Below are positions 1 through 60,716 of a stretch of 64,000 nucleotides of DNA, in pieces (positions within the stretch are counted from its first letter, which is position 1; each line of letters begins with the position of its first letter). The stretch is from a virus. A model generated the notes under the pieces. That model was not told the origin of the DNA. It saw only the letters and a program-made list of their open reading frames with translations, and made no database searches. Location: the IMG/VR virus record IMGVR_UViG_3300005337_000002; one strand, given 5' to 3'. A program made the translations under genes and the position numbers.

Positions 1-291
1 CAGTTTCAGCCGGGGTACAGCACCTATCAGGACGTCATTGGAATGCTCGGCCCGCCGAATCAATCGACCCTACACAGTGATGGCACGCGCGAGGCGATCT
101 ATACCTACACGCAGATGCAACTGAAGCCGCTGAACTTTGTGCCCATCCTTGCGGCTTTCACTCAAGGGAGTACCGCCGAAACCACGACGGTGACGTTACT
201 CTTTGATGCGCGGGGGATGCTTGCCAGCTTCAGCGCGGCCCAGGGACAGACGACGGTGGGGACGGGGTTCGTGTCAGGGGGGCGGCAGTAA
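1..291 (+). CDS. 3' part of a BamE/SmpA-like small lipoprotein-type protein
   Basis: Frame open from window start (QFQPGYSTYQDVIGMLGPP...YTY...LLFDARGML) resembles the SmpA/OmlA domain; 5' end is outside the window. Confidence 0.5.
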   Translation, partial: QFQPGYSTYQDVIGMLGPPNQSTLHSDGTREAIYTYTQMQLKPLNFVPILAAFTQGSTAETTTVTLLFDARGMLASFSAAQGQTTVGTGFVSGGRQ

Positions 292-292
292 T

Positions 293-1165
293 TCAAGCGC
301 CCACATAGGCTTTGACTATTTCCAGTCGGCAATGACCAAGTTCTTCGGACAGAATCGACCGCGCATCCTGGTCCCGCTCTCGCTGCTCTGGGGTCAAGTC
401 CCTATGGCTTGGCCCGCCCGCCACTGGACACAGAAACCCCGTCAACTCCAGAAACCGCCGCTGGGCATACGCATGCCGCAGGCCGTGCATATTGTGCAGC
501 CCCACGCGCTTCACCCAGTCGTCATAGCGGTAGCGTTGTTGGATATACGTGCGATGCGTGGGGATGAGCGACGCCTCCTTGCTCGGGAGCGTTTGCTTGA
601 GCCGGTCGAGGACCTCGCGTTGCGCGGCGGTCGCAATGGGAATCTGGCGCGGGCGTCCGCCCTTGGTCCACGAGCCTTGCAGCACCAGGTACTGCCCCTG
701 ATCCGCCTGCCACAGGCGTATCTTGATGCTCTCCTCCCGGCGCAACCCAAAGGCCCGTTGGAGTTCGAGGGAGGCTCGCACCCAGCGATCCTGTACGCGC
801 ATGAGGACATCATTCGGGACCGTCTGCGCTTTCGAGGTCTTGGCCACGAACTGCCGCGGGGGCAGGGCATAGATCGCGTTGTCTTTGGGCAGGATACTCA
901 CCCGATTGATCTTGTGTGCCCACCAGCGGAGAACGCTCAAGCGGTTGCGAATGGTGGCGCCGCTCAAGCCTTGCGTGTGCCAGAGCGCGAGGAGCTTGTC
1001 GATATGCCGGCCCTTGAGGTCCGTGGCGTGCAAGTCTTTATAGCCAAGGTGGATCAGTTGGTCGGCCATCTGCGCCAGGATCGTGCGCCGATTGGCCTGG
1101 GTCATGAAGGAACCATCGCGGTTGCGCTTGGTGAGTTGGACGAGTTCGTAGGTGAGTTGCTTCAT
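293..1165 (-). CDS. int: Tyrosine recombinase/integrase (small Integrase_1-like type)
   Basis: Catalytic set FGLRREE (R), TKGG (K), HGLRH (HxxR), LGH, KAYVG (Y); 290 aa. Confidence 0.93.
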   Translation of the reverse strand: MKQLTYELVQLTKRNRDGSFMTQANRRTILAQMADQLIHLGYKDLHATDLKGRHIDKLLALWHTQGLSGATIRNRLSVLRWWAHKINRVSILPKDNAIYALPPRQFVAKTSKAQTVPNDVLMRVQDRWVRASLELQRAFGLRREESIKIRLWQADQGQYLVLQGSWTKGGRPRQIPIATAAQREVLDRLKQTLPSKEASLIPTHRTYIQQRYRYDDWVKRVGLHNMHGLRHAYAQRRFLELTGFLCPVAGGPSHRDLTPEQRERDQDARSILSEELGHCRLEIVKAYVGA

Positions 1166-1389
1166 GCGAAGCCCATATCAGGGGCAGGGCATGGCTGCCC
1201 GTCGTGCGTCTGATAGCGTTCCTGTTCGATCGTCATATTGACGGTCGCCATATCGCGCCAGATGCGATAGGGTGGGCAGGGATGCCACTCGCCTGCATCG
1301 TTGCGCTGGAACACAATACCGTGTTGCTCCCACCATGCACGATGTGCGGCCTCGTCTAGTCGTAATACTCGCATGTCACGCTTGCACAT

Positions 1390-1948
1390 CGTCACTCTGA
1401 TATACATATAGAGTGTTGGAGTCTTATCGAGGTCGCTTCCCACGGTCGTCCGTGTGGTCAGTGTCGGTGGGCACCGCATACGGTCTCTCCTATGCAGTCT
1501 CAAGTCTTGCCCGTGTGGGAATAGGGTACGCTGGTCCCCGCAGGTGGTATGCCGTCGCCGGCACCGGGTCTCGTCAGGAGACGCCGCAGCGTGTCTATCA
1601 CAACCATCTATGTCAAATAGCCAGGGGGTCCCGTCCCGCAGCGGGCTATGAAGCGCTGCGGGACAGTCCTACGTTCGGATGGAACGATGCGTCTTCCTCT
1701 GCCTCGTTTCTGCGATACGAGACGGTCATCGTGAGCCCAGATGTGGGGTACATAACCCTCGCAGAGCGGAAACCTCATCAGTCCTCCGTCGACCGATTTC
1801 TGATGGGGACAGACGCAGACGCGAAGCAGGGATGCGATGCATCCAGACATCTCGCTTTGCAGCGAGGGCAGGCCCTTCCGTGCGAGAAGGGCAGTCCGAA
1901 GCCCACCTTCCTCACGGCCTCGGCGTGTTAGGGGTCAGCCTAACAATT
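1390..1948 (-). ncRNA. Putative large structured RNA leader upstream of the integrase
   Basis: Ten or more hairpins on the - strand, including GNRA loops (ctcgct-GCAA-agcgag, tgccg-GCGA-cggca) and an 11-bp perfect stem at 1633-1664; directly downstream of a sigma70 promoter. Confidence 0.6.
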
Positions 1949-1954
1949 GGCAGG

Positions 1955-1983
1955 AGGATAGTGGAAACAACTGTTACTGTCAA
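1955..1983 (-). promoter_or_regulatory. Sigma70 promoter driving the integrase leader
   Basis: TTGACA (1983-1978), 17 nt spacer, TATCCT (1960-1955). Confidence 0.7.
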
Positions 1984-2243
1984 GCATGAGGAGTGGTCTG
2001 TGAGGCATCGATCCTATAGAATGGAGGGGTGTGTCGTATCCGCGGCCTCCATGGCGTCTCCTGTGCGGGCAACACTTCTCTCCCCCGCGCAATGAGCGCA
2101 GCAATATCGTCCTCATCAAAGCCCAGTTTGCGGCCGAGTTTAACTGCCGGCAGTCCTAGCCGCACCCGAAACCGCTTATCGGCAAGACTGCGAGGCGAGA
2201 GACTCAGTCGCTCTGCAGCCTTTTCGAGTGTGAGAATCGCCAT
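1980..2243 (-). CDS. Excisionase-like HTH protein
   Basis: LTLEKAAERLSLSPRSL...LPAVKLGRKLGFDEDDI is an HTH_17/Xis pattern; lies upstream of int. Confidence 0.8.
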   Translation of the reverse strand: MAILTLEKAAERLSLSPRSLADKRFRVRLGLPAVKLGRKLGFDEDDIAALIARGREVLPAQETPWRPRIRHTPPFYRIDASQTTPHA

Positions 2244-2820
2244 GTAATACTCCTTCTATTTCAGAGTTGATTTTTTGGTATCTCCTCCGCAGTGACGCGG
2301 CAGGCCAGCGCAGGGCTTCCCCCGCGCCAGGCCACGCGTGCGCGCCGATCCATCCGCGACATCTCAGCGGGATCGGCGCAGACAGGACGTCGGGCATCAC
2401 CCCCTCTCAGTCTCCGCTCAGGGTATATTCCAGCACCCGTCAGGTTTGGACTGGCAATCAAAGAGACGCTCATCCAAATGACGAGGTACATAGTCACGCA
2501 GCATCACCTCCTCTCAGGGACACACTCAAGGTATTGCCTGTGGGAGCTTGCCGTCATCACCATCACAGACAATAGTTTCGCCAACAATATGACACCCACG
2601 TTCATGTCGCATCACCCCCTTTCAGCGCGCCGCGGCACGTCGGTCCGCCACGTACGCAGCTGGCGCACCCAGCGCTCCTCGTGCTCCAATGCCCCCTCGA
2701 CCCAATAGGTCAGACGATGCCGCGCCAGCGTCTGCAGCACCCGCTGCCAGGTCGGTCGCGGATAGTGCGTCGCTGGATGGGCGCAGGAGCGCTGGACACA
2801 TTTCTTGGCTTGACGGCGTT

Positions 2821-3234
2821 TCATGGGGTGGCTCCTGGCGACGTACACACCCACCGGGGCGCACGATACGTACAGTCAGCACTTCCCGTAACGGGCGGCA
2901 TGGGCGTCCCACGCTGCACGGCCGCTTGGTACGTCTGAGCATCGAGGAGGACGGTGATCGCGGCAAACGTGCCAGCGACCGTGGCATCCACATCCAGGCG
3001 CCCCACCAGCGTATCGGCCTCGTGTAGATGGCGCACCACGGCACACGCGCCGGCCCGCTGGGGCGAGACGATCACGGCATAATGCAGGACACCCGTGGCC
3101 GTCGTCTCCATCAGGCAGGTTTGAGGCAGCAGTAGGACACGCTGGGGCAGAACCGGCCAAAGCCAGGTCGCCGCAAACACGGGGGCAAGGCCCAAGAGCG
3201 CCAGCACCGTGAGGGCACGAAAGAGGGGGATCAT
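2821..3234 (-). CDS. Membrane-anchored protein with a tail-fibre-repeat-like domain
   Basis: N-terminal hydrophobic segment; 11/44 ungapped identities to repeat 1 of the fibre at 50678-52198. Confidence 0.55.
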   Translation of the reverse strand: MIPLFRALTVLALLGLAPVFAATWLWPVLPQRVLLLPQTCLMETTATGVLHYAVIVSPQRAGACAVVRHLHEADTLVGRLDVDATVAGTFAAITVLLDAQTYQAAVQRGTPMPPVTGSADCTYRAPRWVCTSPGATP

Positions 3235-3441
3235 GGCCCCTCCTGCACGATAAACACAGCAAACGCAGTGCGGAAGACCGCGAGGCGCGCCTCACGCGCA
3301 CCGGCGGTTTGCAGACCCCCACGCCGTTTGGCCTCGACCAGACACACGGCGGAGCACGCGGTATGCCGGAATCCGCCATAGGGCGCAGGCGCGGGGGCAC
3401 GGACACCACAGCCCTCGCATTTGTAGGTCGCGACAGGCTGG

Positions 3442-3732
3442 TCAGGGGGTGGGGGCATCGGGAACTTCCTCCTGACGGAGGACCAGCGTGGCCAGTGCCT
3501 CCACCGTCGCCCAGGGGAGCGCCACTTCGCCCTCGCGCATGGCAGGCACGCCGCTGCCTGCCTGGACCAGCAGCGTAATGGGCTTCCCCAACTCGCGTGC
3601 ATACGCCAGTTGTCGCTGGCAGCGACGATCCTTGTGCCAGTTGGGCGTGACGAGCGCGACAAACACGTCATTGGTGCGCACATGGCGTTTCCAGTCAAGG
3701 CCATGCGTATGCATGTCAATGGGCATAGGCAT
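3442..3732 (-). CDS. Minimal TIR-like protein, catalytic Glu apparently replaced by Gln
   Basis: DVFVALVTPNWHKDRRCQRQLAYARELGKPITLL matches the TIR_2 core; AGGAGG RBS before ATG 3732. Confidence 0.6.
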   Translation of the reverse strand: MPMPIDMHTHGLDWKRHVRTNDVFVALVTPNWHKDRRCQRQLAYARELGKPITLLVQAGSGVPAMREGEVALPWATVEALATLVLRQEEVPDAPTP

Positions 3733-3742
3733 CCCTCCTGCC

Positions 3743-4027
3743 TTATTTCGCACGAAAGGTGACCGACGCACTCTCGCCGCTACAGCCAGACGGGAGGTCA
3801 AAGACACTGCTGGCCTTGCCCGTCTGGCGGAGCGTGAGCCGCACTTTCTCTGCGGGAGGCTCACCGCGCAGGACCGTTGTGCCATCGGACCAGACGGTAC
3901 AGTTGCGGCAGGCGACCCCGTCATTTTTCTCGAGTTTGGGCGGTCCCTCGACTTTGTCAAGGACATAGCCCTCAGGCGGGGTAAACGTGAAGCCGGCGGC
4001 GAGCAGGCAGGTGAGCAGAATCAGCAT
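3743..4027 (-). CDS. Small secreted protein
   Basis: N-terminal hydrophobic leader MLILLTCLLAAG; AAGGAG RBS. Confidence 0.55.
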   Translation of the reverse strand: MLILLTCLLAAGFTFTPPEGYVLDKVEGPPKLEKNDGVACRNCTVWSDGTTVLRGEPPAEKVRLTLRQTGKASSVFDLPSGCSGESASVTFRAK

Positions 4028-4774
4028 ACGGCGCTCCTTGTGGGTTGAACAGACAGCGATCTCTCACAGCGACAATGGGCGGGGCACTGATGACACTGCC
4101 CACAGCGGACGCCCCACCAGGCCCGCCAGGGGAGGAGGAAGTGCGGCGTGGGCGGGACCTGCACAGCATCACAGCCACAGGCATCGGTCACAGCCCGCGT
4201 CCCGGCATGGGCACAGCAATCGCAGTAGCGCGTGCGTTCCGGCAGACGGTGGTGCGGCATCAGTGTAGCTCCTCCAGCGTAAACACATCGCCCTCTGCTT
4301 CCCACGTGGTACTCGCTGGGGCCAGCGTCCGCGTCACGAGGTACTCATACAGCGGCGGCATAATATCACGGCGAGTATAGCGTTGCTGGATCACGACCGC
4401 CGGGCCATAGCCGTCCTCGTACCACACCTGCACCGGCTCGCCCTGGGCATAGCGCCACCGCACGAGGCCCCAGCGGGACAGCCAGCGGCGCAGACGTCCC
4501 GGCGTCTCACGGCGCCGCGGGGGTGGACGCGGTGCGGCCATCAGGGGGGCGTCTGGCGGAGGGGACGCGCCTTCATGCGCCTGCGCCCGGAGGGTGCGGA
4601 GCAGGTCGGCCGCAGCGGTGGCCAGCAGCGCGCGCCAGCCTGGCGGGAGGGCCCGCCCCGCCGGTGCCCGGAGCAGATCCTGGCAATCGCGGGCGAGTTT
4701 GTAGGCGCCCTGCCCCACGCGGTCGGTCGGCTCGAGGTGACAGGCCCAGAGGGGTCCGCGGGCGGGCGGAGGCC

Positions 4775-6886
4775 TCACGCGTCCTCCTTGCTCGGGGGCG
4801 CGCCTAGGGGCAGCGCGGAGAGCTGGCCCGCGGTCGTCCCGTAGCCGGTGTCGGCCAGCGCGGTCAGGCTGTGCCCAAACGGGCCCCCCGCCGTCGTACG
4901 ATAATGGAGACCGCCGCGCTGGCCCGTCCCGACGATATCGGCATACGGCGGGGAACTCACCGCACAATCGAGCTGGCCTGGGGGCATCGCGGCGAGTTGG
5001 CCCGGGGACGATCCATACCCGCGCGGGTGGTTGATTTGGGAATTTTTCCCAGTGGTGCCGCCAGACCGGCGCGGGCGAGAGGTGCGCTGTCTGCGGTCGG
5101 CAATCGACGTCCTCTCGTCTTGCCCATGGAAACTCTCGGCATAGGGCGGTGAGCTGATCGTGCACGCACACCCCTGGAGGAGCGGCAACTGTTGCCAGGC
5201 GTCCTCGGGCGGCAGGGGCGCGGGCTTGCGCATGCAATAGACCGTCTCCCATGCAATCGCGAGGTCCGGACGCTTCCGTTCATGCAGGCGGCGGAAGAAG
5301 GAGATGCGCTTGGTCTGGAGTGTCTCGGTCGAGGGCGTCGGGGTATAGCGCCCGGTGGTGTGGAGCGGCGCGCAGAGACTGTCGCCCTCAGCGTCGGTCC
5401 AGTGCATATCCGCGCCGTCCTGGGAAAAGAGCGTCTCCTGCGTGCCGTACTCCTCGGTCAGCACGGCGTGGTGCTCGTGGAGGGTCTCGAACCCGACACT
5501 TTCAGCGGCGAGGCGCCAGTCGCCAGGAAAATCGACGATGGTCCCGTCACGACAATAGCCTTTGACCACCCACAGCGCGTGGCCGCCTGGCCGCACGACG
5601 GCAAAGGTTTGCCGCAGAATCTGCACCGCTGCAGACCAAAAGGTGGTCGGCGCTGCGGTGCCGAGCTGCCCCGGACTGGCCCCATATGTCTGTGCCGCTA
5701 TGCCCCCGACGCCATGCGTGCCAAACGCGGCTTGCTGCGTGCGGTCGCGGCGGCCCCCGTCCACCTTCGACCAGTCAATCGCATCCCGCGTGTCATTGAG
5801 ACTGGCCGCGTAGGGAGGTGAGGACACGAGGCAGTCGGCCACCGGCATGGTTCCTAACTGCCCCGGCGAGTCGGGATAGTGATAATCCCCTTTGTTGCGG
5901 TCAGCACTTTGGCCAGTGGCGCGTGTCCCAGCACCAGCGCCGAGCTTTGTTGGCTTGGTATCCGTATTAGAAAAGGGGGGAGATGAGATCAGGCAGTCGG
6001 CCACTTCGCCCGTCGCCATGTTCCCGAGTTGCGCCGGATCACTGCCGTAGTACGGGTCCACGATGCCCTTGTCGTGCATGATGCCACGGTGACTATCCTT
6101 GTCGCGCTTGGCGTGGTCGGCGTAGGTATGTTCTTTGCCAAGGCCGTGGGCATAGGGCGGACTACTCACGCAGGCCGCAACCTGCCCGGCCAGCACCTTC
6201 TCCAACTCCCGACTATCGCCTCGCAGCAGCACGGCGCCCGTGTGGCCCTGCGCCGCCCAGGTCTCCAGATTGCCCTGGTAGTGATGCGGCCCACTCGACG
6301 GAATCGTGCCGCTGTTGTGGGCATAGCTCGTCGTCGTCACGGCAAAGAGCGTCGCCACCGGGCCATGGGGCGGTGGACGCACGCCATCCTGCCGATCTGG
6401 CAACGGCAGCGGCAGAAACGGCACGGTCCGCTGCCGCACGCGCTGGCCCGGTTTGGGCCGCGTCCGAAAGGTGCGGCGCCGGGCCACGGGCAGGCCGGTG
6501 CGCTGGGACGCCTGGGTCAGACAGCGCGGACACCAGTAGTGACCGTCTGCATAGCGCAGGCGTGTCCAGCGGCCATAGCAGCGCACCCAGTCCGCCTTGG
6601 TGATGCCGGTACAGTCACAGCCGGTGCCGAGATCATTGAAGGGTTGCTCCAACTCCACGCCGATCCAGCGACAGCCGAGGGCCATGGCATCCCAGGCGCC
6701 GAGGCCGACCCCCCCGAAGGGGTCAACAATGGTCGATCCCGGGGCAAGCCAGCCTTCGGCCGCCGCATGCGCATAGATGTGCTGAATGAGCGCCCGTGAG
6801 AATTTCGCCGGGTGCCCGAAGGCTTCTGGGACAATGTGCTGCCAACTGCTGCTGTACAACGATCGCCACACCGTTACGTCAACCAT
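4775..6886 (-). CDS. Amino (N4-C/N6-A) DNA methyltransferase with five SPP(Y/F) modules
   Basis: HPAKF, motif I DPFGGVG, GVELE, five SSPP(Y/F) motifs, downstream VVRPGG strand. Confidence 0.85.
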   Translation of the reverse strand: MVDVTVWRSLYSSSWQHIVPEAFGHPAKFSRALIQHIYAHAAAEGWLAPGSTIVDPFGGVGLGAWDAMALGCRWIGVELEQPFNDLGTGCDCTGITKADWVRCYGRWTRLRYADGHYWCPRCLTQASQRTGLPVARRRTFRTRPKPGQRVRQRTVPFLPLPLPDRQDGVRPPPHGPVATLFAVTTTSYAHNSGTIPSSGPHHYQGNLETWAAQGHTGAVLLRGDSRELEKVLAGQVAACVSSPPYAHGLGKEHTYADHAKRDKDSHRGIMHDKGIVDPYYGSDPAQLGNMATGEVADCLISSPPFSNTDTKPTKLGAGAGTRATGQSADRNKGDYHYPDSPGQLGTMPVADCLVSSPPYAASLNDTRDAIDWSKVDGGRRDRTQQAAFGTHGVGGIAAQTYGASPGQLGTAAPTTFWSAAVQILRQTFAVVRPGGHALWVVKGYCRDGTIVDFPGDWRLAAESVGFETLHEHHAVLTEEYGTQETLFSQDGADMHWTDAEGDSLCAPLHTTGRYTPTPSTETLQTKRISFFRRLHERKRPDLAIAWETVYCMRKPAPLPPEDAWQQLPLLQGCACTISSPPYAESFHGQDERTSIADRRQRTSRPRRSGGTTGKNSQINHPRGYGSSPGQLAAMPPGQLDCAVSSPPYADIVGTGQRGGLHYRTTAGGPFGHSLTALADTGYGTTAGQLSALPLGAPPSKEDA

Positions 6887-30666: not shown

Positions 30667-31277
30667 CACAGGGTCATCATATAGATACCTACGTTGATCT
30701 GCGTGCGAAGGCCTTGGGCTATGATGATTACGCACACTATCTCCGTAGTGACCATTGGCAAACATTCTGTGCCACCGTCCGTAAAACGCTCTGCTGGTGT
30801 TGCGGACGCTCGCAGGGTCACCTACATGTCCATCACACCACCTATGCGCGTTTTGGTTCTGAAGAGCCTGGAGACGTTATTACGGTCTGTAAGGGATGCC
30901 ATTTGGCGATCCATGCTCTCTCGCGCACCGGCATCGCCCTTGATGAGGCCCACATTGTCTATCGGCGCCGACGTATCCAGCGCGGGGCACGTCACAAACG
31001 GCCTCGCTGGGTCAGTTGGTTTCAACTCCTCAACAAATCAAAACAGCAGACGATTGGCGAGTTACGTCTCTTTTTAGAAGAGCATGGTTTGCTTGAAGGG
31101 GAGGAAGCCACACCCAAAGCATTTGCGCTCGGTTTTGTCCGCTTAGAGGATGGGGAGCAGCGATGGAACCTGAAGAAGTACCTCGGGTTTGTTTCTGCGT
31201 GGAAATCCATTGAGAAGCGACGGGAACAAGGCCGTGGCATTTCCCGCACAGTGGCACGCCTCGCGTCTGGGCGTTAA
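30654..31277 (+). CDS. HNH endonuclease
   Basis: YLRSDHW...CWCCG...LHVHHTTY.RFG.E...D..TVC..CH..IH. Confidence 0.8.
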   Translation: MRHLAQGHHIDTYVDLRAKALGYDDYAHYLRSDHWQTFCATVRKTLCWCCGRSQGHLHVHHTTYARFGSEEPGDVITVCKGCHLAIHALSRTGIALDEAHIVYRRRRIQRGARHKRPRWVSWFQLLNKSKQQTIGELRLFLEEHGLLEGEEATPKAFALGFVRLEDGEQRWNLKKYLGFVSAWKSIEKRREQGRGISRTVARLASGR

Positions 31278-31305
31278 GAACATCTCTCACAGAAAGGACA
31301 TGCGC

Positions 31306-32568
31306 ATGGAGCGCACCCTGCCGAAGAAGCTCACGGAGCTGGGCCGAATCCGCATAGGAGATCGTGAACCAAACGCCCGGGGCGGGGGCACGCATCCCCA
31401 TAAGCTCTCGACCTTTCGTCTGACCTCGCAAAACGGCTCCCTGCTGGGCTTTGTGGCGTCCCTCTATGGTGGCACGGTGAAACCCTGGGAGGGCGAGGGG
31501 GCGCCGGTGGATGAGCACGGCCGCGCCACGCATTTCGAGGTGTACACGGAAGCCAATAGTCTGGACGTGCTCATTCCCACGATGAGTGCGGTGGCCCTAT
31601 CCTATGAGGTCTGGAGTGCGTCCGGGTGCCAGCGGCGATGCACGGGCACGGTCATTCAGGATTGCGCGACGAACCTGGATCTGATTGGCAAAGCCTGTAT
31701 CTGCCCGGCGGACGATCTGGAGCGGGCGGATCAGGCCCAGCGCGGGGCAGCCTGCCTGCGGATTCTGCGCTTGAACGTGCTGCTGCCGGACGTGCCGGGC
31801 CTGGGGACATGGCGGCTGGAGACGAAGGGGTTTTATGCCGCTGCGGAGCTGCTCGGGACGCTGGACCTGCTCACACAGGCCGGGGGCGAGCATGCCATTA
31901 TCGAGAGTGTCTTGCGGCTGGAGCAGCGCACGCTCAAGCGGGCGGCACGGGGCGATCAGAAAGCGCAAACGATGAAATTCGTGGTGCCGGTGCTCTGGCC
32001 GAAATGGACGCCGCGCCAACTGCTTGCGGGCACGGCCAATATCCTGCTCATGGCCCCGCCGACGGCTGAGGAGCCCCCGCGCCTCGCGTCGCCGATCGGC
32101 GATCTCTACGGCGACCAGGCTGCGCCCGCGGCGGATCCTGGGCAGCGGCATGAACCAGCGCTCCTCGATGCGCTTGCGGCCCATCCGGGGGAGACGCTGG
32201 AGACGTGGTATGGCTGGGCGGAGAAGCGCCTGCACAAAGCGCGTACGGCCTTTACGGACGACGACTACGGCATGCTGCTGCAAACGATCCGCGATACGGT
32301 CCGCAAAGCCAGGGCGACGGGCGAGACGTCTGATCCAGACTGGCGCATGAGTGTCACCCGCTTGGCTGCAGAGACGCGGGCGTTGCTCACGGGGAAGAAT
32401 CCGTCCCAAGCCATGGAGCGGAAGGTGCGGGCCGCCTGTGCCACGGCCACGGGGGTGGCAGAAGATCCCGACGCAACGGTCGCTGTGGGCGAGGCGTGTC
32501 TGGAGACGCTACGCACCGTGGCCGATGAGGTGCGGGCGCATTTGGCCCACGGTGGCGCAGTGGTCTAG
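31306..32568 (+). CDS. Gp3-like (recombination directionality factor-like) phage protein
   Basis: ELGRIRIG...KLSTFRLTS...RRCTG...RLNVLLPDVPGLGTWRLETKG. Confidence 0.7.
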   Translation: MERTLPKKLTELGRIRIGDREPNARGGGTHPHKLSTFRLTSQNGSLLGFVASLYGGTVKPWEGEGAPVDEHGRATHFEVYTEANSLDVLIPTMSAVALSYEVWSASGCQRRCTGTVIQDCATNLDLIGKACICPADDLERADQAQRGAACLRILRLNVLLPDVPGLGTWRLETKGFYAAAELLGTLDLLTQAGGEHAIIESVLRLEQRTLKRAARGDQKAQTMKFVVPVLWPKWTPRQLLAGTANILLMAPPTAEEPPRLASPIGDLYGDQAAPAADPGQRHEPALLDALAAHPGETLETWYGWAEKRLHKARTAFTDDDYGMLLQTIRDTVRKARATGETSDPDWRMSVTRLAAETRALLTGKNPSQAMERKVRAACATATGVAEDPDATVAVGEACLETLRTVADEVRAHLAHGGAVV

Positions 32569-48326: not shown

Positions 48327-50693
48327 CTAATTAGTAGCATACGCTTGCCATTTGGAGAGCACTGTGGAATAGACCACGCCAATTGCTGTCCAGGCGGATG
48401 TTCCGCTTGGGCATACCGTGGGCAGGCCGACGTTCGGGCTCGCAATAAAAATACTATTCCAAGCAAACGTCTGTTGGGACGTGCAGAGGAACCGCAGAAA
48501 CAGGCGTTGGCCATTGACGGGCGTGCCTGAGGGGGCGGCCACCGTGAGCGTCCCACTGCCAGCGGTCATCTGCATCTCGCAGTCGTCGGACGAGTCTCCC
48601 GCACAGGTGTACGTGGTGCTGCTTGTCAAGGTCGTGACTCTGGGCGTGATCCTCTTCGCAGACAGCGTCTGCGTATCCGTATCTCCGACGACCGCCCCGC
48701 TCGGTGCCGCGACGACGTTGAGCGTGCCATCCCCGCCCGACGTCTTCACCAGGCCGTTACTTGTCAGATTCGCGAGTTTGGCAATCGTGGGGGTGGTGAG
48801 CGTCGGACTCGTGGCCTTGACGTAGTTGCCCGTCCCAGTCACCGCAACGCCCTGAATGACCGTTGCGGACGTCCACTCTGCCGCTTGCCCGCTGGTCGGC
48901 GTGCCCGTGTTCGACACATTGCCCCCGCCTGCCGGCGTCTGCCACGTCCCATCGCCGCGCCAGAAGGTGGACGATGACGCGGACGTGCCGCTATTCAGAT
49001 TCGCCACCGGCAGATTCCCCGTGACCCCGGTACTCAGGGGCAACCCGGTCGCATTGGTCAGGACCGCCGCACTCGGCGTGCCCAGCGCGGGCGTGACGAG
49101 GGTGGGACTCGTCGCCTTGACGTAGTTGCCGGTGCCTGTCACGGCCACCCCTTGGACGGCCGTCGCGCTGACCCATTCCGTCGACTGTCCCGCGACAGGC
49201 GTGCCCGAGATCGTAATGGTCCCCCCGCCCCCGCAGGACGTGACGGTGCACAGCGCCCCATCGCTATCGGGCAGCGTGTTGAAGTGATGGGCGCTCAAAT
49301 TGCCCGCCATGAGCGTGCTGGTCCAGCCATGCGGGTCCGTCAGTTCCACGAGGCCGCTGCCCTGGCCGTGCGTCATTTCCTGGATCGTGCCGACATGGTT
49401 GCCCGGATCATAGAGAAAGCGGCCGGTGTCCACGTCCCACGTCGTGCCTTCGCCGTGAAACGCCACGTCCTTGTAGGCCCCCGTGGCCAGCGCCGCCCCG
49501 CCCCCGCCGCCCCCCGCCAGCGTGGCAATCAGTTGCGAGTTGAAAATGATCTGCCAGGTCGAGGTGGTCGAGTCGTACTCAAAGAGCAGGAGATCATCTT
49601 TATTCAGCCCGGTCGTCGCGGCCGGCAAGTCCCAGCCGGCATTCTCGCTATACTGCGGTTGCCAGGTGAGCGGCTGAGGCGTGGCACTGCGCAGGCGCAA
49701 GCGATACCACTGCCCGGCCCGCGCCGTGCCCAACGGGTTGAGGATGAGCGCGCCCGTCGTCATGGCCGTCACGCGCTCCAGGTCATACAGCACGGGATTG
49801 GGCTGAATCGTGCCGCTGGTGGTGCTGGGATCGGCCAGCGTATTGACGCGCGGCGGGACAAACGTCTGCTCCAGCGTCTGCGGGCCATCCGTCCCGGCCA
49901 GATTGCCCGCGGGCAACGGCACGGTGGTGACGGCGGCGAGCCCCCCGCTGGTCGTGGCGTAGAGGACGCCCGAGGGCAACACCCCGAGATTCACGCCGAC
50001 CGGGAACTGGCTATTACTTTGCGCGAGGAGCGGCTTGGCGACGGATTGGGCGATGGCTGGCACATCGCAGATGAGGACGCCCGTGGCCGTCACGCCTTTG
50101 GCATAGGTCCCTGCGAGTTGACAGGTATTGCCCACATAGGCCGCAAAAAGCCCCGTGCCATCCGCGGCCTGGAGCGTGCCAGCCCCGCCGAGCGGGAGGC
50201 GCTGCCAGGTGCCCGCCACGGTCGACGTCGTGATCGGCACTTGATTGGTGGCCGTGGCAGTGCTCATCGTCACATTGCCGAGCGAGCCACTGCCGCCCGT
50301 GCCCCCGCTCAGCCCCTCGACCTGGAACGTGGTACCGTCGTCGCAGGCTTCGACCCGCTGGCCGATGCCGATGTCATTGGCGACGAGCGGGGTCGCCACG
50401 CCCGCCACGCGCTTCATCAGGGCCTTCGCCCCGCGCCCGTTGACGTTGAGGGTCGCCGGGCCGGTGTTGGCGGCATGCGCGAAGAACGCATAGCAGGCGC
50501 CGACATGGTAGGACAGAATCGCTGGGGTGAGGGTGATCGCATACGTATTCGTTGCGCCCGTTGAGGTCGTGGCGGTATTAAACCATCCATAGATCGTGCG
50601 CGGTCCGGCAATGGGATTCTGACTATAGCTCGCTGTCACCGCGCACAGGAGGAGCCCTATACTGAGGAGGATGCCTCTTAGGCTCTGTCGCAT
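48327..50693 (-). CDS. Tail-fibre-like protein with signal peptide
   Basis: G/T-rich fibre motifs ([25 protein letters not shown]), internal duplications, N-terminal signal peptide. Confidence 0.8.
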
Positions 50694-52198
50694 GGCGGTG
50701 CCTCCGTGCGTCCGAGCGTCGCTTCCAGTGCTTCGACACGCGCATGCAGTTCTTTGAGGCCGTTCATGAGCGTATACACGAGCGTCCCGCTCCCTTCATT
50801 CGTCAGAATATCTTCGACCGCGCCGCCTGGCGTGAGAGCACGCCGTGCTCTTCCCACCATCGTCGGGGCCACCTGTTGCAGTGCTTGTGCAATCAACCCG
50901 ACATGCTCTTTGCCGTCCTTGGGCATGCCGCCGAGCCCGTTATAGGCAAAGACGACGGGCTCTAGGCGCAGGAGGAGGTCTAAGCCTTCCAGATACGGAC
51001 GTCGGACCTCTTTCAAACGGGCGTCAGAAAATATCGTCCAAGCACTCGTTCCAGGTTTACTAGCACTATCGGTACTCAACTCCAGCTGGTGGGAGGGCGA
51101 CGTCACGCCCAGCCCCAACTGTCCTGCCGTGGTCAGGGTGGCGAGGATGGCGCTCAGGGCATTGCGCAGATACACATGCCCGCCTGCGCCCATTTGCAGC
51201 GAGAGATCCCCCGCCCGGGAATAGACGCTGGTGGCCGTCTGATTGACCACGCCCCCGTCGCGAATCGTAAAGTCCGTACCGCTAAAGTCCGCCACACTGC
51301 CGAGCACGAGGCGCCCGCTGGTGGGATCGCTAAAGGTGGCGACGACATCATAGGTCGTGGGATGGACCGTGAGCGTGTTCGGGGCCAGCGCCGTGCGCGG
51401 CGTACTCGCATCCCACACGCCCCAGAGCAGTGCCCGGGTGCCCAGGCCATGCGTGCTCCCGGCCACGGTCACGGTCATCTGGCTCGTGAAACTCGCGGCA
51501 TATTGCGGGTCCGATTTCGTCAACACCAGATACCCCGTCATGGGATCGCTAAAGGTGACGACGACGTCAAACGTGCTCGGATGCACCGTGATACTATCGG
51601 GGGCAAAGACCGCACTGCCGAGAATCTGGCCCGCCGGTTGCGTATTGTCATAGAGGCGCCAGAGGAGGTCGGCCGTCGCAAAGCCATGCGCGCTCCCGAG
51701 CACGGTGACCGTGGTGGCGGCCGTGAAGTCCCGAATGTAGGGCGCCGCCCCACTGAGGACCAGACTGCCACTTAGGGGGTCCGCAAACTGCGCCAGGACG
51801 TCATACGTACTCTGATCCACCGTGAGGGCCGCCGGCTCCACGGCGGCGGCAGGCACGGCATCGGTATAGAGTTGCGCCAGGAGTCCCCGTGTGCCGAGCC
51901 GATGGGTCGTGCCGCCGACGTACACGCTAATACGATTGACAAAGTCGATGAGACTTGCCGCACTGCCAATGCCGGGGAGAAACTGGTTCAAGCGGGCGGC
52001 GACGCTGCCGAGGCTCCCCTGCGGTTGCGCGCCGAGACAGGTCTCGATGGAGAGGATCGCCGCTAGTATATCATTGACTAATTCAGAGTCGATGCGACTA
52101 TTAGAATCAGGCGCAGCAGGAGTACCATTGACATACGTTTGTGCGGTGTCAATCCCTGCTGAGTAACTGGTCCCGAAACCCGCCCCCAATTGGCTCAC
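50678..52198 (-). CDS. Tail fibre with three ~75-aa repeats and a C-terminal peptidase S74 chaperone
   Basis: SDARLKE...L.PV.F.YNG...VGLIAQ...KEL..RVE.LE. Confidence 0.88.
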
Positions 52199-52395
52199 AT
52201 TAGCGGTCCTCACGGGTATCAGGGTGATCGTGCATATATTGCCGCACCGCTTGGCGGATGGCCTGCTGCGTGAGGACGGGCAAACTCAGTTGTGTCCGGA
52301 GCGCGTTGATCTGCGTGAGCAGTACGTCAAAGACCATGCGCTCACGTGGGGCTAGGACGGTTGTTGGATCAACGCGATGGTCGAGTCTCGGCATC

Positions 52396-52824
52396 CTAGG
52401 TCGCCTCCACGGTGATCGGTGCCGCCCACGCCGTTGCCATGGTGTGCAGGGCAATCACAAACAGCGCCGGCACATCGGACGTGAGGACCAGCGTCGGATC
52501 CTCCGTCGTCAGGGCCAGCGGTGCGCCATTGACGACCAGCGTACATGCTTCAAACGGGTCAATGGTCACGGTACAGGTGGCCACGGCATCGGCGACAAAG
52601 GGGTTGGGCGTCGCCGTGATCGTGAGTTCTTCCTTGGCACTGACCGCGCCCTCGACAATCGCGTACTGCTCCTGCCACACGCGCGGATCATGCGCGTCGT
52701 CGGTCAGCAGATAGCCATAGGTCGGGTCGTCGGGCACGATTTGGGCTTGTGTCAGGCCGAGACTGCTGCCCTGAATCACGGCATCGATGAACCCCGTATC
52801 CAGGCGATATTTCAGGAGGGCCAT
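52396..52824 (-). CDS. Tail-associated hypothetical protein
   Basis: Between J and the fibre; RBS. Confidence 0.55.
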   Translation of the reverse strand: MALLKYRLDTGFIDAVIQGSSLGLTQAQIVPDDPTYGYLLTDDAHDPRVWQEQYAIVEGAVSAKEELTITATPNPFVADAVATCTVTIDPFEACTLVVNGAPLALTTEDPTLVLTSDVPALFVIALHTMATAWAAPITVEAT

Positions 52825-52828
52825 GTCA

Positions 52829-55800
52829 TCACCTCTGCAGCCGCAACGCGATAAAGCTGACATCCGACACACTGAGGCCCCCCGAGCCCAGCGTCTGGTT
52901 CAGCGTCAGGTAAAAGCTCTTCCCACTGAGGGCGGAGGGCACCTGATAGAAGGCGTTCAGGGCGATACTGGTGGCGGTGCCGGCATCGGACTGGGCCGTA
53001 CTGTTCAGGATGTTGCCGCTGAGATTATTTTCCCGAATGCGCACGGTCATCGTCTGCCCGACGCCGCTACTGCCGATGCCCTGGGCCAGAAACAGCACGA
53101 CATCGCCCGGATTGAGCAGCGTGAAGGTCAGGCTCGCGACGACAGTTTCCGTCCCGCTACTCGAAATGATCGAGGCCGAGCTATAGAGGAGCGATTCCGA
53201 GACGGCGGCCAGCCCGATCTTGGGCGTGGTAATCGCGTACTCATCGACCTTGGGGGTCGTGACGGCGAGGGTCCCGATGCCGTGACTCGTGGCCCCGCTG
53301 TTGAAGTCCCACATGAGTTGGCCATCCCAACTCCAGATTTGCATCCCGTAGTCGATATTGGTCGCGCCGATCTTGCCGAGATAGACCCGTGCCGCGGGCG
53401 TATTCTGATTATCAAAGATCGTTATTAAATGGTTCGGGCCGTCGAGCGTAATGGCATCCCCGCCGACCCCGATGCTATAGACCGCCTGCAGGGCCCCGGC
53501 CGTGATTTTGGGGGCACTCAAGGTGAGAATTTTGGCATCCTCAATCAGCGCATTGGCAATCTGCGCTCCGACTGTAATGACCGCAAACTCCGTCTGGAGA
53601 TGGGCGGCCTCGATGCTCCCGGCCCGAATATGGCGCGCGACGACGGCCGCATCGCTAATGCCGGCCGTCTGCGCCCCATCGGTAAAATTCCACATGAGCA
53701 CGCCGTTCGCATCAAAGATCTGCATGCCGTAGGCCGTATTGAGCGTCCCCAGCTTCCCCAGGTAGACGCGGGGCACCGGCACATTCTGGCTATCGAAGAT
53801 GGTGATGAGATTATTCACCCCATCGAGCACGATATTGTTGACGCCGAGGCGCACCAAGGCTTGAATGGTCCCCGCCGTAATCTTCGTGGCAATCAGACTG
53901 CTGATAAACGTGCTGTCGAGCTGGCCGGCCGTCCCGGCGACGCCCGCAATCGCGGACGCGGGCTGAAAGGCCGCCGAGCCATTTCCCGACGTATCGACCG
54001 CGCGGAGCCAGTAATAGCGGGTGTCGTTCGGCCCGAGCCCGTCATGAATAAAATTACTCTCCCCGGTGCCAATGCGGGTCGCGCTGGCGCGGTTGTTCAC
54101 GGGCGCCGACCAGATCTCACTATAGGCATAGTCCCCGTCCGGCGGCGGCGTCCAGAGCAGCGCAATCGAGCGAATACTGCCCACGGCCAGCAGGTTCGTC
54201 GGGGCCGCAGGCGGCGTCGTATCCTTGGCGGAGATGATGGACACGTCGGCACTATAGCCGGAGACATTGTGGAATTTGTCAAACGTGAGGAGGCGCACCA
54301 TGACGGGCGTATTGCCGGGCACCGGAATATGAATGAGGTGCTGCCGCCGCTCCGGATTGTAGACGGTGGGGCTCGTGCTCGTATTGAGATAGACATGCAC
54401 CTCATAGCCGGCCACATCGCTTTCCATCGCCAGGTCCCAACTTGCCTCGACCCAACTCATCGTCGTGCCATCGGAACTCAGGTCCACGCCTGTCGTGAGC
54501 GCGAGCCCGGTCGGGTCGGCGGGCGGCGTGCTATCAAAGGAATCCGCCGTGATCCCGGCAGGCACAAAGCTGGCCGTATGCGTGGGAATGCCCGGCCCAA
54601 AACTATCGTAGGGCAAGATATACGTGTAATACGTCGCGCCGACCTGGAGCCCGCTCACAAAGATTTTGCTAAAGGCTTTCGCTTCCGCCACCGAAAAGGC
54701 ACTGAGATTGTCATAGATGGCAATCGGGGGATCCATGAGGTCGAGGTGAATCTCATAATGGTCAAAGTCGCGCGGTTGCACAAACTGCGAAAAATCAATA
54801 ATGACAAAGAGAAATGGCACGATTTCGGGGATCATGTCGCCCATGTCGGGCGGCGGATTATTCGCCTTGAGGATCGCCGGATCGAGGGAGATGCGATTGG
54901 TGTTGGTGCGAGCCCAGACGAAAAACCACATATCCCGGCGCGCCCCGCCCATCCCGGCCCGCGCCTGATCTTCGGCATTTTGCTCCAGCGTATAGGTCCA
55001 CTGAATCGCGACGCCCGGGGAGCCCGCCAGCACCGTGGTGCGCCGCATGAGGTATTGCTGCCCCGGCGCCCAGACCTCGACAATATAGTCCTGCACAAAA
55101 TAGGTTTGCGTAAAGAGCGGGCTATCGGCGACCGGGAGCCATTCGATATGGACATCACGCCCCTCAAAGTCCGTCACCCCCACCGCCTGGCCTTTGAGCC
55201 GCAACTGTTGCACCGTGCCCGGAAAAAAGTCGGGGGTCGTCGGCCCGGCGACGTGGATCATGGCTTCGCGCGCCCCGGTATTATTCGGCGTGCCGCCCTG
55301 GGAGATCGGCACGACGCGGTACACATAGGTCGTGCCGGTGAGCACGGTATAGTCATCGTAGTCGAGGACATGGCCCCGCAACTGGATGAGGGGAATAAAA
55401 TTGACGTTCGCATCGCTCGGGTCTTGGATCGCGCCAAAGTTGATGATGCCCGCTTGCGCGACGCCGGCCCCACTACTTTCGAGGACGGCCCGCCGCAGGA
55501 TGAGTGCCCCACCATACGGGCCAAAGCCCGCCGAGAGGGCCGCCACATCCCACGAGAGGTTGACCACGCGCAGACTCGCCCCGCTGGCTTGAATCCGCGT
55601 CACTTCGGTGAGGATGAGCGAGGTAATGGGCGGGGCGGGGCCGGCTGGGTTAAAGAGATTCGAGATGACGGGGAGACTCGTGGCCGTCGCCTCGTCATAG
55701 ATCGAGGGATTGTGGATGATCCCCTGGATATGGACCGTGGTATCGGATTTCCGCTGGAGGGCCGTGACGCGAAACACCTTCACGGCGGTGTCCACGGGCG

Positions 55801-58222
55801 TCAACTCGCCAAAGGCCCACAGGGTGCCGCGCGCCTGATCGGGGGTCTGGCTGAGCGCTGCTGCGAGCGTGATAGCACTGACGGTACTGGCGCCGGGATG
55901 ATTGACGGTCCGCACTTCGGTGGTGAGGTCCGTATGGCGAATATAGATGTGATAGGTTTTGCCCGCGACAAACGTGACGGGGAGATCGAGGAATAAGGTC
56001 GTCGTGGTACTGGTCGCCAGGAGCCGCCCCCCGGTGCCCCACCCCGGCAGCGGATGCGCAAAGCGAAAGAGGTCATGGCGTTGCACGCGGGCCGCATCCA
56101 GCGCCACGTCCATCTCGATAATCAGCGTCTCAAAGCGCCGGCGATTCAGTTCAAACTGGAGGGCCTGCATCACTTCACTCGGGACGGTGATGCCCCGCAA
56201 GTCGAGACTCGCCTTGCGGACCTCGGCGGGCCAGTCATCGACGGCGGGCCAGGTGATGACGTCTTGCAGATACCCATTCTCGGCATTGTTAAAGCGCCCC
56301 TCCATCACGTTAATGCGGTCGGGATCGCGGGTATACCGCAGCTTCACGTTGGTGCAATTCGCCCAGTTAAAGAGTTGGACGGGCGTTTCATCCCGTGTCG
56401 GGCGGGCGGTCCAGATGCCCTCATCCTTCAGGAGCAGCGTGCGGGCATTTCCGGCCATCTCCAGCAGCGCGGGTTGCGCCCGGAGTTCCCGGTCCAGACT
56501 ATAGTTAAATGTGTGGCGCGGCTTGCCGTTCACCGTCTGCGTATTGTAGGCCCACCAGGCACTGAAGGAGCCCAGGTCAATCTCCGCATCGGGGATGCCC
56601 AGGCCATAGCGCGGGTGCGTCATCATGTCCATCGTGCACCAGGCCGGGTCCTGGGAGTAATTCCAGTTCTGCGTGAACTCATTGACCCGAATGATGCGCC
56701 CGAGGATCTCAATCGTCACATTCGGCAGGGCGCCCTGGAGGGCATCCGTCGCCACGGCCCGCAACCCCAGGAGCGGCGTATTGGGATAGGCATTCGTGTT
56801 GTGCTGAATCTCCGTGACCGATTCAAGCGTGGGCATCCACTTGGCCTGGACGTCGTTCACCTGGCGGGCATGCGAGAACTCCACGTGCACATCATAGATC
56901 GCCAGCGGCAGGCCTTCACGACGGATGCCAAAGCGCACGGGCGAGGTACGCGCGGCCGCCACGTCAAAGAAGCTGAAATTGGTCCAGGTGCCCGCTGGAT
57001 GCACGCGGTACCGGTAGCCCAGGGTCGTCACGTTCTCTTCTTTTTCGCCCGTTTTCGTCAGGAAAAAGAGCCCTTCCTGAAACACGATGTTGAGGGCAAA
57101 CGCCTGCACGGCTTGCGTGGTGGTGTAGACGATGCCCGGATCCGCCGCGATCACGCGCCCATCCGCAAAGGTATTGGCCGTCTCGCCAAACTCCGGGATG
57201 GCGGTCTGGTCGCTGTACCCGTTGCGCACGTAGACGAGGACCTGCGGAAAGTTGCCGAGCGGCTGGCCATTCAGCTCCATCGTCTCGGTGAGGAACCCCC
57301 CGATGGGGCCTTCGCCAAAGCCGAGGAGCAGATTGAGCGTCGGGGCGGCCGCAATCGCATCGACGCGGCGGGTGGGGGCGGTCGCCGGGGTATCGAGCAC
57401 CACGAGGATGCCCCCGCCGGTATAGGCGCGCTGATCAATGCCCGCGGAGGACTGGAGGGACAGGGTGTTGTCATCGATGTAGGTGACGTACCAGCCGCCA
57501 TTCGCGGCCGTCTTGCCCGTCACGCCGCCAATATCGACATGACTGCCGGTACTCGCGCCATGGGTATTAGCCACCACGACGATGGGGTTGCCGACCGTGC
57601 CATCGAGGGACAGATCGCCGCCATAGACATTGTCAATGGCATGCGGCACGCCGGCGGTCGCCCCAGACGGATCGACGTCAATCACGGTCATGGCTTGCTC
57701 GACGGCGGCACTGAGGAGTTGGCCTGCCACGCGCACGCGGCCATAGTGGACGGGCACGACGTTGCCGGGGCCAATCGTGGTGCGGATGCCTTCAAAGCTG
57801 AACGTCGGTTCGTCCACGGCCTGCTGGATATGGGGCTTCGCGGGCGGAAAGAGCAAGTAGGTGAGGGCCGTCGTGGCAATGCCCACCGCAATGCCGACCG
57901 CCGCATAGATCAGGAGCGGGATCAGGACGCTACTCTCAATCCCCCAGCGCGGAATCAGCCACACTTCGTCCTGGTCCTGCACCAGCGTCGTCATGTAGGC
58001 CTCAGGCGCAATGACTTTCCCGCTGATACTGACTTGGGCCGCAGGGATGTCTGGGGGCAGCACATGCGCCAGCGGCACACCTGGGGTGAGCGGGAGCCGG
58101 ACGGTGCGCCAGTGGCGATCCGCGCCCCGCACGGGGGAACAGACAATCACGAGTTCCGCGGTGACAAGCAGCCCTTCACGCGGACAGGGCGGGGGACGGG
58201 GAAGCCTGCGCATACTCTTCAT
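52829..58222 (-). CDS. Tail tip/host specificity protein (lambda gpI plus gpJ-like)
   Basis: VPVHYG.VRVAG, GEGPI.G, YPNT.LLG, DPAWC..D....RYG.G, FN3 repeats. Confidence 0.9.
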   Translation of the reverse strand: MKSMRRLPRPPPCPREGLLVTAELVIVCSPVRGADRHWRTVRLPLTPGVPLAHVLPPDIPAAQVSISGKVIAPEAYMTTLVQDQDEVWLIPRWGIESSVLIPLLIYAAVGIAVGIATTALTYLLFPPAKPHIQQAVDEPTFSFEGIRTTIGPGNVVPVHYGRVRVAGQLLSAAVEQAMTVIDVDPSGATAGVPHAIDNVYGGDLSLDGTVGNPIVVVANTHGASTGSHVDIGGVTGKTAANGGWYVTYIDDNTLSLQSSAGIDQRAYTGGGILVVLDTPATAPTRRVDAIAAAPTLNLLLGFGEGPIGGFLTETMELNGQPLGNFPQVLVYVRNGYSDQTAIPEFGETANTFADGRVIAADPGIVYTTTQAVQAFALNIVFQEGLFFLTKTGEKEENVTTLGYRYRVHPAGTWTNFSFFDVAAARTSPVRFGIRREGLPLAIYDVHVEFSHARQVNDVQAKWMPTLESVTEIQHNTNAYPNTPLLGLRAVATDALQGALPNVTIEILGRIIRVNEFTQNWNYSQDPAWCTMDMMTHPRYGLGIPDAEIDLGSFSAWWAYNTQTVNGKPRHTFNYSLDRELRAQPALLEMAGNARTLLLKDEGIWTARPTRDETPVQLFNWANCTNVKLRYTRDPDRINVMEGRFNNAENGYLQDVITWPAVDDWPAEVRKASLDLRGITVPSEVMQALQFELNRRRFETLIIEMDVALDAARVQRHDLFRFAHPLPGWGTGGRLLATSTTTTLFLDLPVTFVAGKTYHIYIRHTDLTTEVRTVNHPGASTVSAITLAAALSQTPDQARGTLWAFGELTPVDTAVKVFRVTALQRKSDTTVHIQGIIHNPSIYDEATATSLPVISNLFNPAGPAPPITSLILTEVTRIQASGASLRVVNLSWDVAALSAGFGPYGGALILRRAVLESSGAGVAQAGIINFGAIQDPSDANVNFIPLIQLRGHVLDYDDYTVLTGTTYVYRVVPISQGGTPNNTGAREAMIHVAGPTTPDFFPGTVQQLRLKGQAVGVTDFEGRDVHIEWLPVADSPLFTQTYFVQDYIVEVWAPGQQYLMRRTTVLAGSPGVAIQWTYTLEQNAEDQARAGMGGARRDMWFFVWARTNTNRISLDPAILKANNPPPDMGDMIPEIVPFLFVIIDFSQFVQPRDFDHYEIHLDLMDPPIAIYDNLSAFSVAEAKAFSKIFVSGLQVGATYYTYILPYDSFGPGIPTHTASFVPAGITADSFDSTPPADPTGLALTTGVDLSSDGTTMSWVEASWDLAMESDVAGYEVHVYLNTSTSPTVYNPERRQHLIHIPVPGNTPVMVRLLTFDKFHNVSGYSADVSIISAKDTTPPAAPTNLLAVGSIRSIALLWTPPPDGDYAYSEIWSAPVNNRASATRIGTGESNFIHDGLGPNDTRYYWLRAVDTSGNGSAAFQPASAIAGVAGTAGQLDSTFISSLIATKITAGTIQALVRLGVNNIVLDGVNNLITIFDSQNVPVPRVYLGKLGTLNTAYGMQIFDANGVLMWNFTDGAQTAGISDAAVVARHIRAGSIEAAHLQTEFAVITVGAQIANALIEDAKILTLSAPKITAGALQAVYSIGVGGDAITLDGPNHLITIFDNQNTPAARVYLGKIGATNIDYGMQIWSWDGQLMWDFNSGATSHGIGTLAVTTPKVDEYAITTPKIGLAAVSESLLYSSASIISSSGTETVVASLTFTLLNPGDVVLFLAQGIGSSGVGQTMTVRIRENNLSGNILNSTAQSDAGTATSIALNAFYQVPSALSGKSFYLTLNQTLGSGGLSVSDVSFIALRLQR

Positions 58223-58608: not shown

Positions 58609-58632
58609 ACGAACAACTCTCTCAGTCCTCAA

Positions 58633-59136: not shown

Positions 59137-59138
59137 GG

Positions 59139-59735: not shown

Positions 59736-59767
59736 ATTTCACGCTGCTTTTCTGTTATAATATATAG

Positions 59768-59826
59768 GCGCGCGGCTCGGGTCTGCAGCCCGCCAAGCCA
59801 GCAACTCCACACTGGTCAGCCGCCGC
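59768..59826 (+). ncRNA. c4-like three-way-junction leader RNA
   Basis: TGtTATAAT promoter; loop caactccaca complementary to two tgtggag boxes, the second being the SD. Confidence 0.62.
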
Positions 59827-60710: not shown

Positions 60711-60716
60711 TACCCT

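Follow-up and report, generated by a model that had tools for sequence, protein, structure and literature searches.

The DNA analysed here, called the window below, is the whole 64-kb stretch of an IMG/VR virus record, and all positions are those of this window. Near its first end it carries, on the minus strand, a gene for a small tyrosine recombinase, a 105-codon ORF that overlaps the recombinase start (ATGA), a stretch that is rich in predicted stems, a promoter-like site named P1 and a gene for a small HTH protein (Table 1). All features of the leader discussed in this study lie on the minus strand. The HTH protein matched Pfam HTH_17 only weakly and the PHROG excisionase families with an E-value of 6e-6. 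The -35 box of P1 overlaps the stop codon of this HTH gene, and in a scan of positions 1-4000 P1 was the sole sigma70-like site called, which confirms the promoter-like site pointed out in an earlier sequence-only reading of this DNA.

Table 1. Features of the recombinase locus, in the order of the minus strand
Feature	Positions	Strand	Basis or remark
HTH protein, 87 aa, excisionase/AlpA type	1980..2243	-	directly upstream of P1
P1, sigma70-type promoter-like site TTGACA-17-TATCCT	1955..1983	-	promoter scan
5' hairpin of predicted transcript: TTGTTAGG, loop CTGACC, CCTAACA	1921..1945	-	reading and fold
Variable, strongly folded middle: GNRA-capped stems and multibranch domain	1665..1920	-	predicted fold
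Hairpin T: 11-bp G+C stem, loop CTTCATAGCC	1633..1664	-	
Conserved block 3' of hairpin T (GGCTATTT..CATAGA..TTGTGA..GACACGCTGC)	1577..1632	-	
Conserved 3' core of leader, 125 nt	1452..1576	-	model R2 match
ORF, 105 codons, no known family	1162..1479	-	starts at AUG within conserved hairpin
Tyrosine recombinase, 290 aa, PF12834 + PF12835	293..1165	-	Pfam

The same reading had described about 550 nt of structured non-coding RNA with no convincing ORF until about position 1374. The stretch without a credible ORF is shorter, about 475 nt (1955-1480), because GGAGAGACCGTATG at 1490-1477, a consensus ribosome site with a start codon, opens the 105-codon ORF at 1479. Every stem that had been listed could be read on the minus strand, and most of them recur in the minimum-free-energy fold of 1375-1960, which reaches -236 kcal/mol with a z of -3.49 against dinucleotide shuffles (one of 100 shuffles was equally good). 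The antisense strand of the same stretch folds with a z of -2.39. The observation itself is real and is partly confirmed, with its length overstated.

The recombinase consists of a core-binding type domain (PF12834, residues 1-82) and a catalytic domain (PF12835, residues 122-235) alone, so the absence of an arm-binding domain noted from the sequence holds. The catalytic residues R142/R143, K168, H227, R230, H278 and Y287 were invariant in 24 homologues, which identifies the protein as a tyrosine recombinase. Searched with the recombinase profile, the sequences of the PDB gave no match. The family is large: of 8000 candidates that one search scored, 7000 proved to be significant homologues, and a gene with both domains is present on 227 plasmid records. 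Among the latter are plasmids of 5-9 kb that have little beyond a replication gene or a coupling protein and the recombinase gene, and most of these small-plasmid records are typed without a known relaxase. To our knowledge, no function has so far been shown for any recombinase with this domain pair. The relatives of the window's element come from soil and other metagenomes. In the clade of the window, at least nine distinct loci encode a TraG/VirD4-type coupling protein no more than 3 kb from the recombinase gene, with TraU usually beyond; the coupling protein of the window's element would sit just past position 1. In islands of the PFGI-1/ICEclc class the gene lies between DUF3577/RadC/DUF6573 genes on one side and pilL2, a lytic transglycosylase gene and DUF2859 on the other, and thus it heads the transfer genes. 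Given its constant position next to the coupling protein and at the start of the transfer genes, the recombinase probably processes DNA within the conjugation module, whether as a site-specific recombinase or as a relaxase of the recombinase type. Three recombinase-type relaxases are found in the literature, namely TcpM, MobK and MpsA (PMC8152469, PMC6414798, bioRxiv 10.64898/2026.01.13.699239).

The window also contains phage tail genes (48327-63998 and 31189-32568), among them an SLT-domain tape measure, a 1871-aa GpJ-like tip and an S74-chaperone fibre, and a Gp3-like recombination directionality factor is encoded in the same regions. Conjugation-type and phage-type modules are thus combined in the window, which could represent a phage-plasmid or elements that lie side by side. 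Other neighbours of the recombinase gene were seen in single relatives. A TROVE (Ro60-type) gene lies directly downstream of it in L006 (6132-7544); Ro60 proteins usually partner with Y RNA. An IS605 OrfB / Cas12f-like TnpB gene lies near the locus in L005 (8665-9840).

The promoter was not confined to the window. In the relatives L005, L006 and L089 a site of the form TTGACR-17-TAyyCT lies 500-660 nt upstream of the conserved hairpin described below, an arrangement that these three share with the window in spite of their divergence. No genes were called in the gaps between promoter and hairpin, and the gaps were more stable than their shuffles, with z values of -3.3, -3.9 and -1.9. Downstream of the promoter all three have a 5' hairpin that begins with TTGT. 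In L005 this hairpin (TTGTCAGG...CCTGACA) lies at the same distance from the -10 box as in the window, and a T-A pair of the window is replaced by a C-G pair in L005, which is a compensatory change. The sequence-only reading had suggested that similar CTGACC-loop and GNRA-ACCACCT motifs precede other integrases of this family. This was borne out in so far as CTGAC occurs in the 5' hairpin, at +22 to +33, in the window, L005 and L089, and the block ACCACCTGCGGGG occurs in L089, L091 and L096. It failed in that CTGAC is not significantly enriched, as 91 of 500 shuffles reached its count.

The middle of the leader behaved differently in these comparisons. Positions 1665-1920 had no similarity by blastn or alignment to L005, L006 and L089 except for two short blocks just before hairpin T, the purine block GGCAGAGGA and ACGYAGGAC. 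A blastn search of the window leader against the leaders of L005, L006 and L001 gave no similarity, and matches were limited to relatives whose recombinases are 91% identical. Judged by these searches, the 5' 250-300 nt, with the multibranch domain and most of the stems first listed, is lineage-specific. Since this part is not conserved, its elaborate fold may have no function.

Conservation begins around hairpin T. Its equivalents were found in L005, L006, L087, L089, L091 and L096, so that seven loci could be compared with the window included. The stems are entirely different among these loci, with 7-11 bp that are nearly all Watson-Crick pairs, and the loops are related (..CATAGCC, ..GCAACCG, ..GCAGCCAG). 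In L091 and L096 hairpin T is placed after the stop codon of the upstream gene. No U-tract follows it directly in the window. Downstream, the seven-locus comparison revealed a block GGYTRTTT..CATAGA, and the blocks of 1577..1632 recur in L087, L089 and L006 and partly in L005 and L096. Altogether, hairpin T, its flanks and the 3' core make up about 300 nt that are common to the window and four loci. A TTGACA after hairpin T was considered as a second promoter and rejected, for it lacks a usable -10 box, the scan did not pick it up and relatives do not keep it as a promoter.

Evidence for a family comes from the 3' core. A covariance model, R2, was built from six relatives only, with the window left out, and it matched the window at 1452-1576 on the minus strand with 26.5 bits (E 3.4e-5), the best match of the window in a 200-kb search; the close relative L003 scored 30.3 bits. 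The relatives that share this plan have recombinases 56-64% identical to that of the window. The core blocks read CACCTGCGGGGACCAG and TTCCCACACGGGC in the window, and the blocks CACCTGCGGGAGCCAG and TTCCACACCGGGC are common to all seven loci. The core also holds the final hairpin, which in the window pairs 1497-1492 with 1479-1474 around the loop AGGAGAGACCGT and is followed by the motif ACACTGACC at 1464-1456. The loop carries AGGAGAGACCnUAUG, after which comes CACUnACC, the window copy of the whole arrangement spanning 1497-1456; across the seven loci the form is a loop AGGAGAGACCnUAU and then GGCCAG.A.CACUnACC. The Shine-Dalgarno (SD) sequence and the AUG in this hairpin are invariant among the loci of the clade. 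Its stem, in contrast to them, changes from locus to locus in step on both sides (CTGCAT/ATGCGG, GTGAC/GTCAC, AAGACA/TGTCTT, GACTG/CAGTC, CATGC/GCATG and CCACA/TGTGG), and four of the six outer pairs show compensatory changes in the seven-locus alignment, which includes the window. By direct reading, the two hairpins of the clade contain three G-U pairs and no A-C pair. Because the model matched where it should and on the right strand, the 125 nt at the 3' end are, on this comparative evidence, a member of a real leader family that is specific to recombinase genes of this clade.

The start codon in the final hairpin lies in a consistent layout. The frame of the 105-codon ORF is kept in L003, whose recombinase is 91% identical, with a pN/pS of 0.39. 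In other relatives the ORF opened by this AUG has 7 to about 25 codons and terminates close to the recombinase start or across it. In the window and in L005, L006, L087, L089, L091 and L096, these ORFs of 7 to 105 codons all cross CACUnACC and either stop just before the recombinase start or continue across it. The recombinase start in the window has no good ribosome site of its own. An ORF that always runs from the hairpin AUG across CACUnACC to the recombinase start suggests translational coupling. A suspicion by eye that the ORF at 1162-1374 is a homologue of the ORF upstream of the L091/L096 leader was not supported by tblastn and was dropped.

The comparison with L003 should be read with care. 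Between 1560 and 2260 the two sequences differ at about nine sites, so that about 700 nt are about 99% identical, whereas the genes that flank this block have a pS of 0.27-0.43. We considered this near identity as proof of selection on the leader and rejected it, because the HTH gene within the block is equally unchanged (its protein is identical to that of L003, with a single nucleotide change) while the neighbours diverged. Recent exchange is the simplest explanation, and it is more likely that 1560-2260 represents a recently exchanged HTH-plus-leader block with a sharp mosaic boundary than that it was held by selection at the nucleotide level. Compensatory changes were sought between the window and L003 and none was found; several of the changes break predicted pairs. 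Beyond the HTH gene, the window has three copies of a 17-nt box at 2394-2625, spaced by 107-108 nt (GCATCACCCCCTCTCAG on the plus strand, CTGAGAGGGGGTGATGC on the minus strand). Each box resembles a ribosome site that precedes a short ORF upstream of the HTH gene, and the region of the boxes is strongly diverged from L003, with 31-76 differences per 100 nt.

The gene also occurs behind a different leader, about 220 nt long. Of 91 sources searched with a model of it, 69 had this leader, nearly all of them islands of the PFGI-1/ICEclc class. This sister leader was described by a covariance model, R1, with 222 positions and 26 pairs (loci L010-L086, for example L061:2272-2490). It has seven predicted helices and always lies on the strand of the gene. 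Near its 5' end, about 200 nt before the start codon, there is an invariant consensus Shine-Dalgarno sequence, AAAGGAGGUG, which is not followed by a start codon, and the last hairpin contains no AUG. In nearly all of the 69 loci the leader stops 28-31 nt short of the start codon of the gene, where CAGAAACACUUACC lies. One hairpin has mixed loop types that include GNRA and UUCG tetraloops. In the alignment, which was fitted to the model and thus inflates the values somewhat, 93% of the cells were paired, compared to 78% in shuffles, compensatory changes were found in 19 of the 26 pairs, and both-sided changes occupied 240 cells, compared to 65 in shuffles and 28-50 in slid controls. G-U combinations outnumbered A-C combinations by 64 to 28, so that folding of the gene's own strand is favoured. 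With its fixed spacing, its strand and its pairing, the sister leader has the look of a 5' UTR element. A pseudoknot between a UGACC loop and GGUCA showed no covariation by eye in the alignment, and a likeness of the last hairpin to the 3' end of 16S rRNA held in one subgroup only; both were dropped.

With filters off, R1 found at best 1.2 bits (E 0.28) in positions 1100-2100 of the window, and nhmmer found no match there. What the families have in common is the final co-varying hairpin and CACUnACC (RRCACUnACC in the sister form) only. The window clade differs from the R1 leaders in the long loop with SD and AUG and in the upstream ORF.

No catalogued RNA was recognised in either family. Rfam 15, including STAXI, EFASI, radC and PAGEV, gave no match in positions 1-6000 of the window with E-values up to 1, none over the whole window at gathering score, and none in the leaders of L003, L005, L006, L087, L089 and L091; the sister leader had no Rfam match either. 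The sequence-only reading had named a lack of covariation or conservation, or a described Rfam family, as grounds on which its RNA should be abandoned. Neither was found: the stems co-vary, the promoter and the 3' core are kept in relatives, and the window leader matches no Rfam family. Its idea of a functional RNA gains from these points and from the absence of ORFs in relatives, and it loses in that a ribozyme or guide is unsupported. On present sequence comparisons the functional interpretation gains partial support in the 3' half of the stretch, and it may or may not hold for the 5' half. The leader family appears to be new, without a catalogued RNA counterpart, and its members would be structured leaders of conjugative-element genes.

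STAXI (RF01728), EFASI (RF02957) and radC (RF01754), which Weinberg and colleagues reportedly described in 2010 and 2017, are structured, promoter-proximal motifs of conjugative islands. They resemble the window leader in lying beside 'XerDC-type' integrase, ssb, antirestriction and radC genes. They differ from it in fold and conserved blocks, and their models match neither the window nor its clade. Catalogued RNAs were seen near PF12835 genes elsewhere. The 4.9-kb Vibrio plasmid pSIO1 (L092), whose only sizeable genes are those of the PF12835 recombinase and a coupling protein, with no replication gene annotated, contains a PAGEV RNA at 348-565 (RF03037, 122 bits). In L039 a radC RNA motif (RF01754, 69 bits) lies at 3505-3643, directly 3' of the PF12835 gene.

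We tentatively suggest that 1955-1480 is a cis-acting mRNA leader, transcribed from P1, of the 105-codon ORF and the recombinase gene, a reading that we put just short of an even call. It draws on the fixed spacing to the start codon, the conserved promoter, the fold on the sense strand and the ribosome site and AUG in the last hairpin. The transcript from P1 would carry a long folded 5' leader and then the two coding regions. Hairpin T might limit read-through, either as an attenuator or as a site of processing. The final hairpin would show a strong ribosome site in its loop and hold the AUG at the junction of loop and stem. Ribosomes would load at this hairpin, translate across the invariant CACUnACC and deliver ribosomes to the recombinase start or deny them, and in this way the leader would set the timing and the amount of recombinase. 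A factor encoded by the element or the host may bind the invariant single-stranded blocks; no sensor or ligand was evident for the leader.

It is possible, though unlikely, that the RNA, whole or as a processed 3' part, partners a recombinase-type enzyme in trans to start conjugative transfer. The precedent is SGI1, in which sgm-sRNA is cut from a transcript of 650-700 nt that has a strong sigma70 promoter, an 11-bp G+C hairpin and an end beside the start of mpsA (Nagy et al. 2021, PMC9299015). The 3' 280 nt of this RNA are needed in trans for SGI1 transfer, and not through expression of mpsAB (PMC9299015). The layout at the window's locus fits this well, with a strong promoter, an 11-bp G+C hairpin, a length of about 500-650 nt on the strand of the gene, an end upstream of the gene and a conserved 3' core. 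Compared by description, both have a same-strand structured transcript before a transfer gene of the tyrosine-recombinase type, with the 3' part conserved. They differ in that the G+C hairpin of SGI1 lies 66 nt after the start site and in that its oriT is inside the transcript. Moreover, the leader is tied to the recombinase gene family regardless of the genes downstream, and small plasmids with the gene are in many cases typed without a known relaxase. A cofactor role may be considered, since SGI1 depends on an RNA whose gene lies at the corresponding place before a recombinase-like relaxase (PMC9299015). However, trans action is shown for the SGI1 RNA only. MpsA has no core-binding domain and works with a separate MpsB (Kiss et al. 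2019, PMC6414798), whereas the window protein has PF12834 fused to PF12835, unlike an SGI1-type module, in which MpsB is a separate PF13495-like protein. The conserved core also holds a ribosome site and a start codon that look as if they work, which is typical of mRNA. The specific proposal that PF12834+PF12835 enzymes, as enzymes that start or resolve conjugative transfer, have the leader or a 3' core processed from it as their trans RNA partner is more doubtful still. If it were true, RNA-assisted transfer, known only from SGI1, would be general in thousands of conjugative islands and of small plasmids that are typed as non-mobilisable.

The stretch might instead work as DNA, that is, as an origin of transfer or a single-strand origin. 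Its hairpins would then form in the strand that is displaced or transferred, and its CACTnACC would be a recognition or nick region. We regard this as possible, though unlikely. The stretch adjoins the coupling protein and lies at the border between the transfer genes and a group of small genes with a DNA methylase, and in relatives ssb, radC and DUF3577 genes adjoin it. Its place near genes of the leading-region type would suit an origin. Nick regions usually have this layout, a hairpin with an invariant single-stranded motif after it. In pIGRK, pCW3 and SGI1 the origin is found immediately before the gene for the recombinase-type relaxase (PMC8152469, PMC6414798). The origins of pIGRK and pCW3, used by MobK and TcpM, resemble the window's locus in being 150-450 bp of repeat-rich non-coding DNA right in front of a small tyrosine-recombinase-like gene; MobK and TcpM have no core-binding domain and are unrelated to each other in sequence, and no promoter-driven RNA was described for their origins (PMC8152469). 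Several features are more than an origin needs, however: the motif of the sister family at a fixed 28-31 nt from the start codon, its mixed loop types with GNRA and UUCG, the conserved SD and AUG in the hairpin, and the conserved promoter that reads into the stretch. No dyad of the tyrosine-recombinase type surrounds the motif in the window, and no second copy of the hairpin or motif that could serve as a partner recombination site occurs within the 64 kb. Islands of the ICEclc class are reported to have a TraI relaxase and mapped origins (PMC5812530). By analogy with SGI1, whose oriT lies inside the transcript, the roles of leader RNA and origin need not be exclusive.

That the stretch has no function, as chance stems in a G+C-rich spacer or as small genes that were missed, seems very improbable for the locus as a whole. 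In its favour, the 5' half is unconserved and G+C-rich DNA folds well anyway. Against chance stand the model match, the stems that co-vary and a promoter that is kept in relatives. In L003 gene callers predict an opposite-strand ORF of 145 aa; we rejected this ORF (1413-1931 in the window) since it matches no family and loses its N-terminus in L003 by a 2-nt indel. On these comparisons the non-functional reading is already largely refuted for 1452-1664, and it stands for 1665-1920. A programmable guide RNA that targets the recombinase, like the bridge RNAs of IS110, has hardly any plausibility: a structured, RNA-like stretch does lie directly upstream of a recombinase without an arm-binding domain, but the enzyme class differs (tyrosine recombinase), the best-conserved loops and single-stranded blocks are invariant across elements whose recombinases are 47-64% identical when a guide should vary with its target, and invariant blocks beside a ribosome site and start codon point to an mRNA leader.

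Folded and uncatalogued leaders thus consistently precede the PF12834+PF12835 genes in the backbones of conjugative islands and plasmids. If these leaders gate expression of the recombinase, as we tentatively suggest for the window, conjugation would have a control point that is new. Should they act in trans or as DNA, they would reveal the relaxase and the origin that are missing from elements classed as non-mobilisable. In R1 and R2, the two families are available as concrete and testable RNA families.
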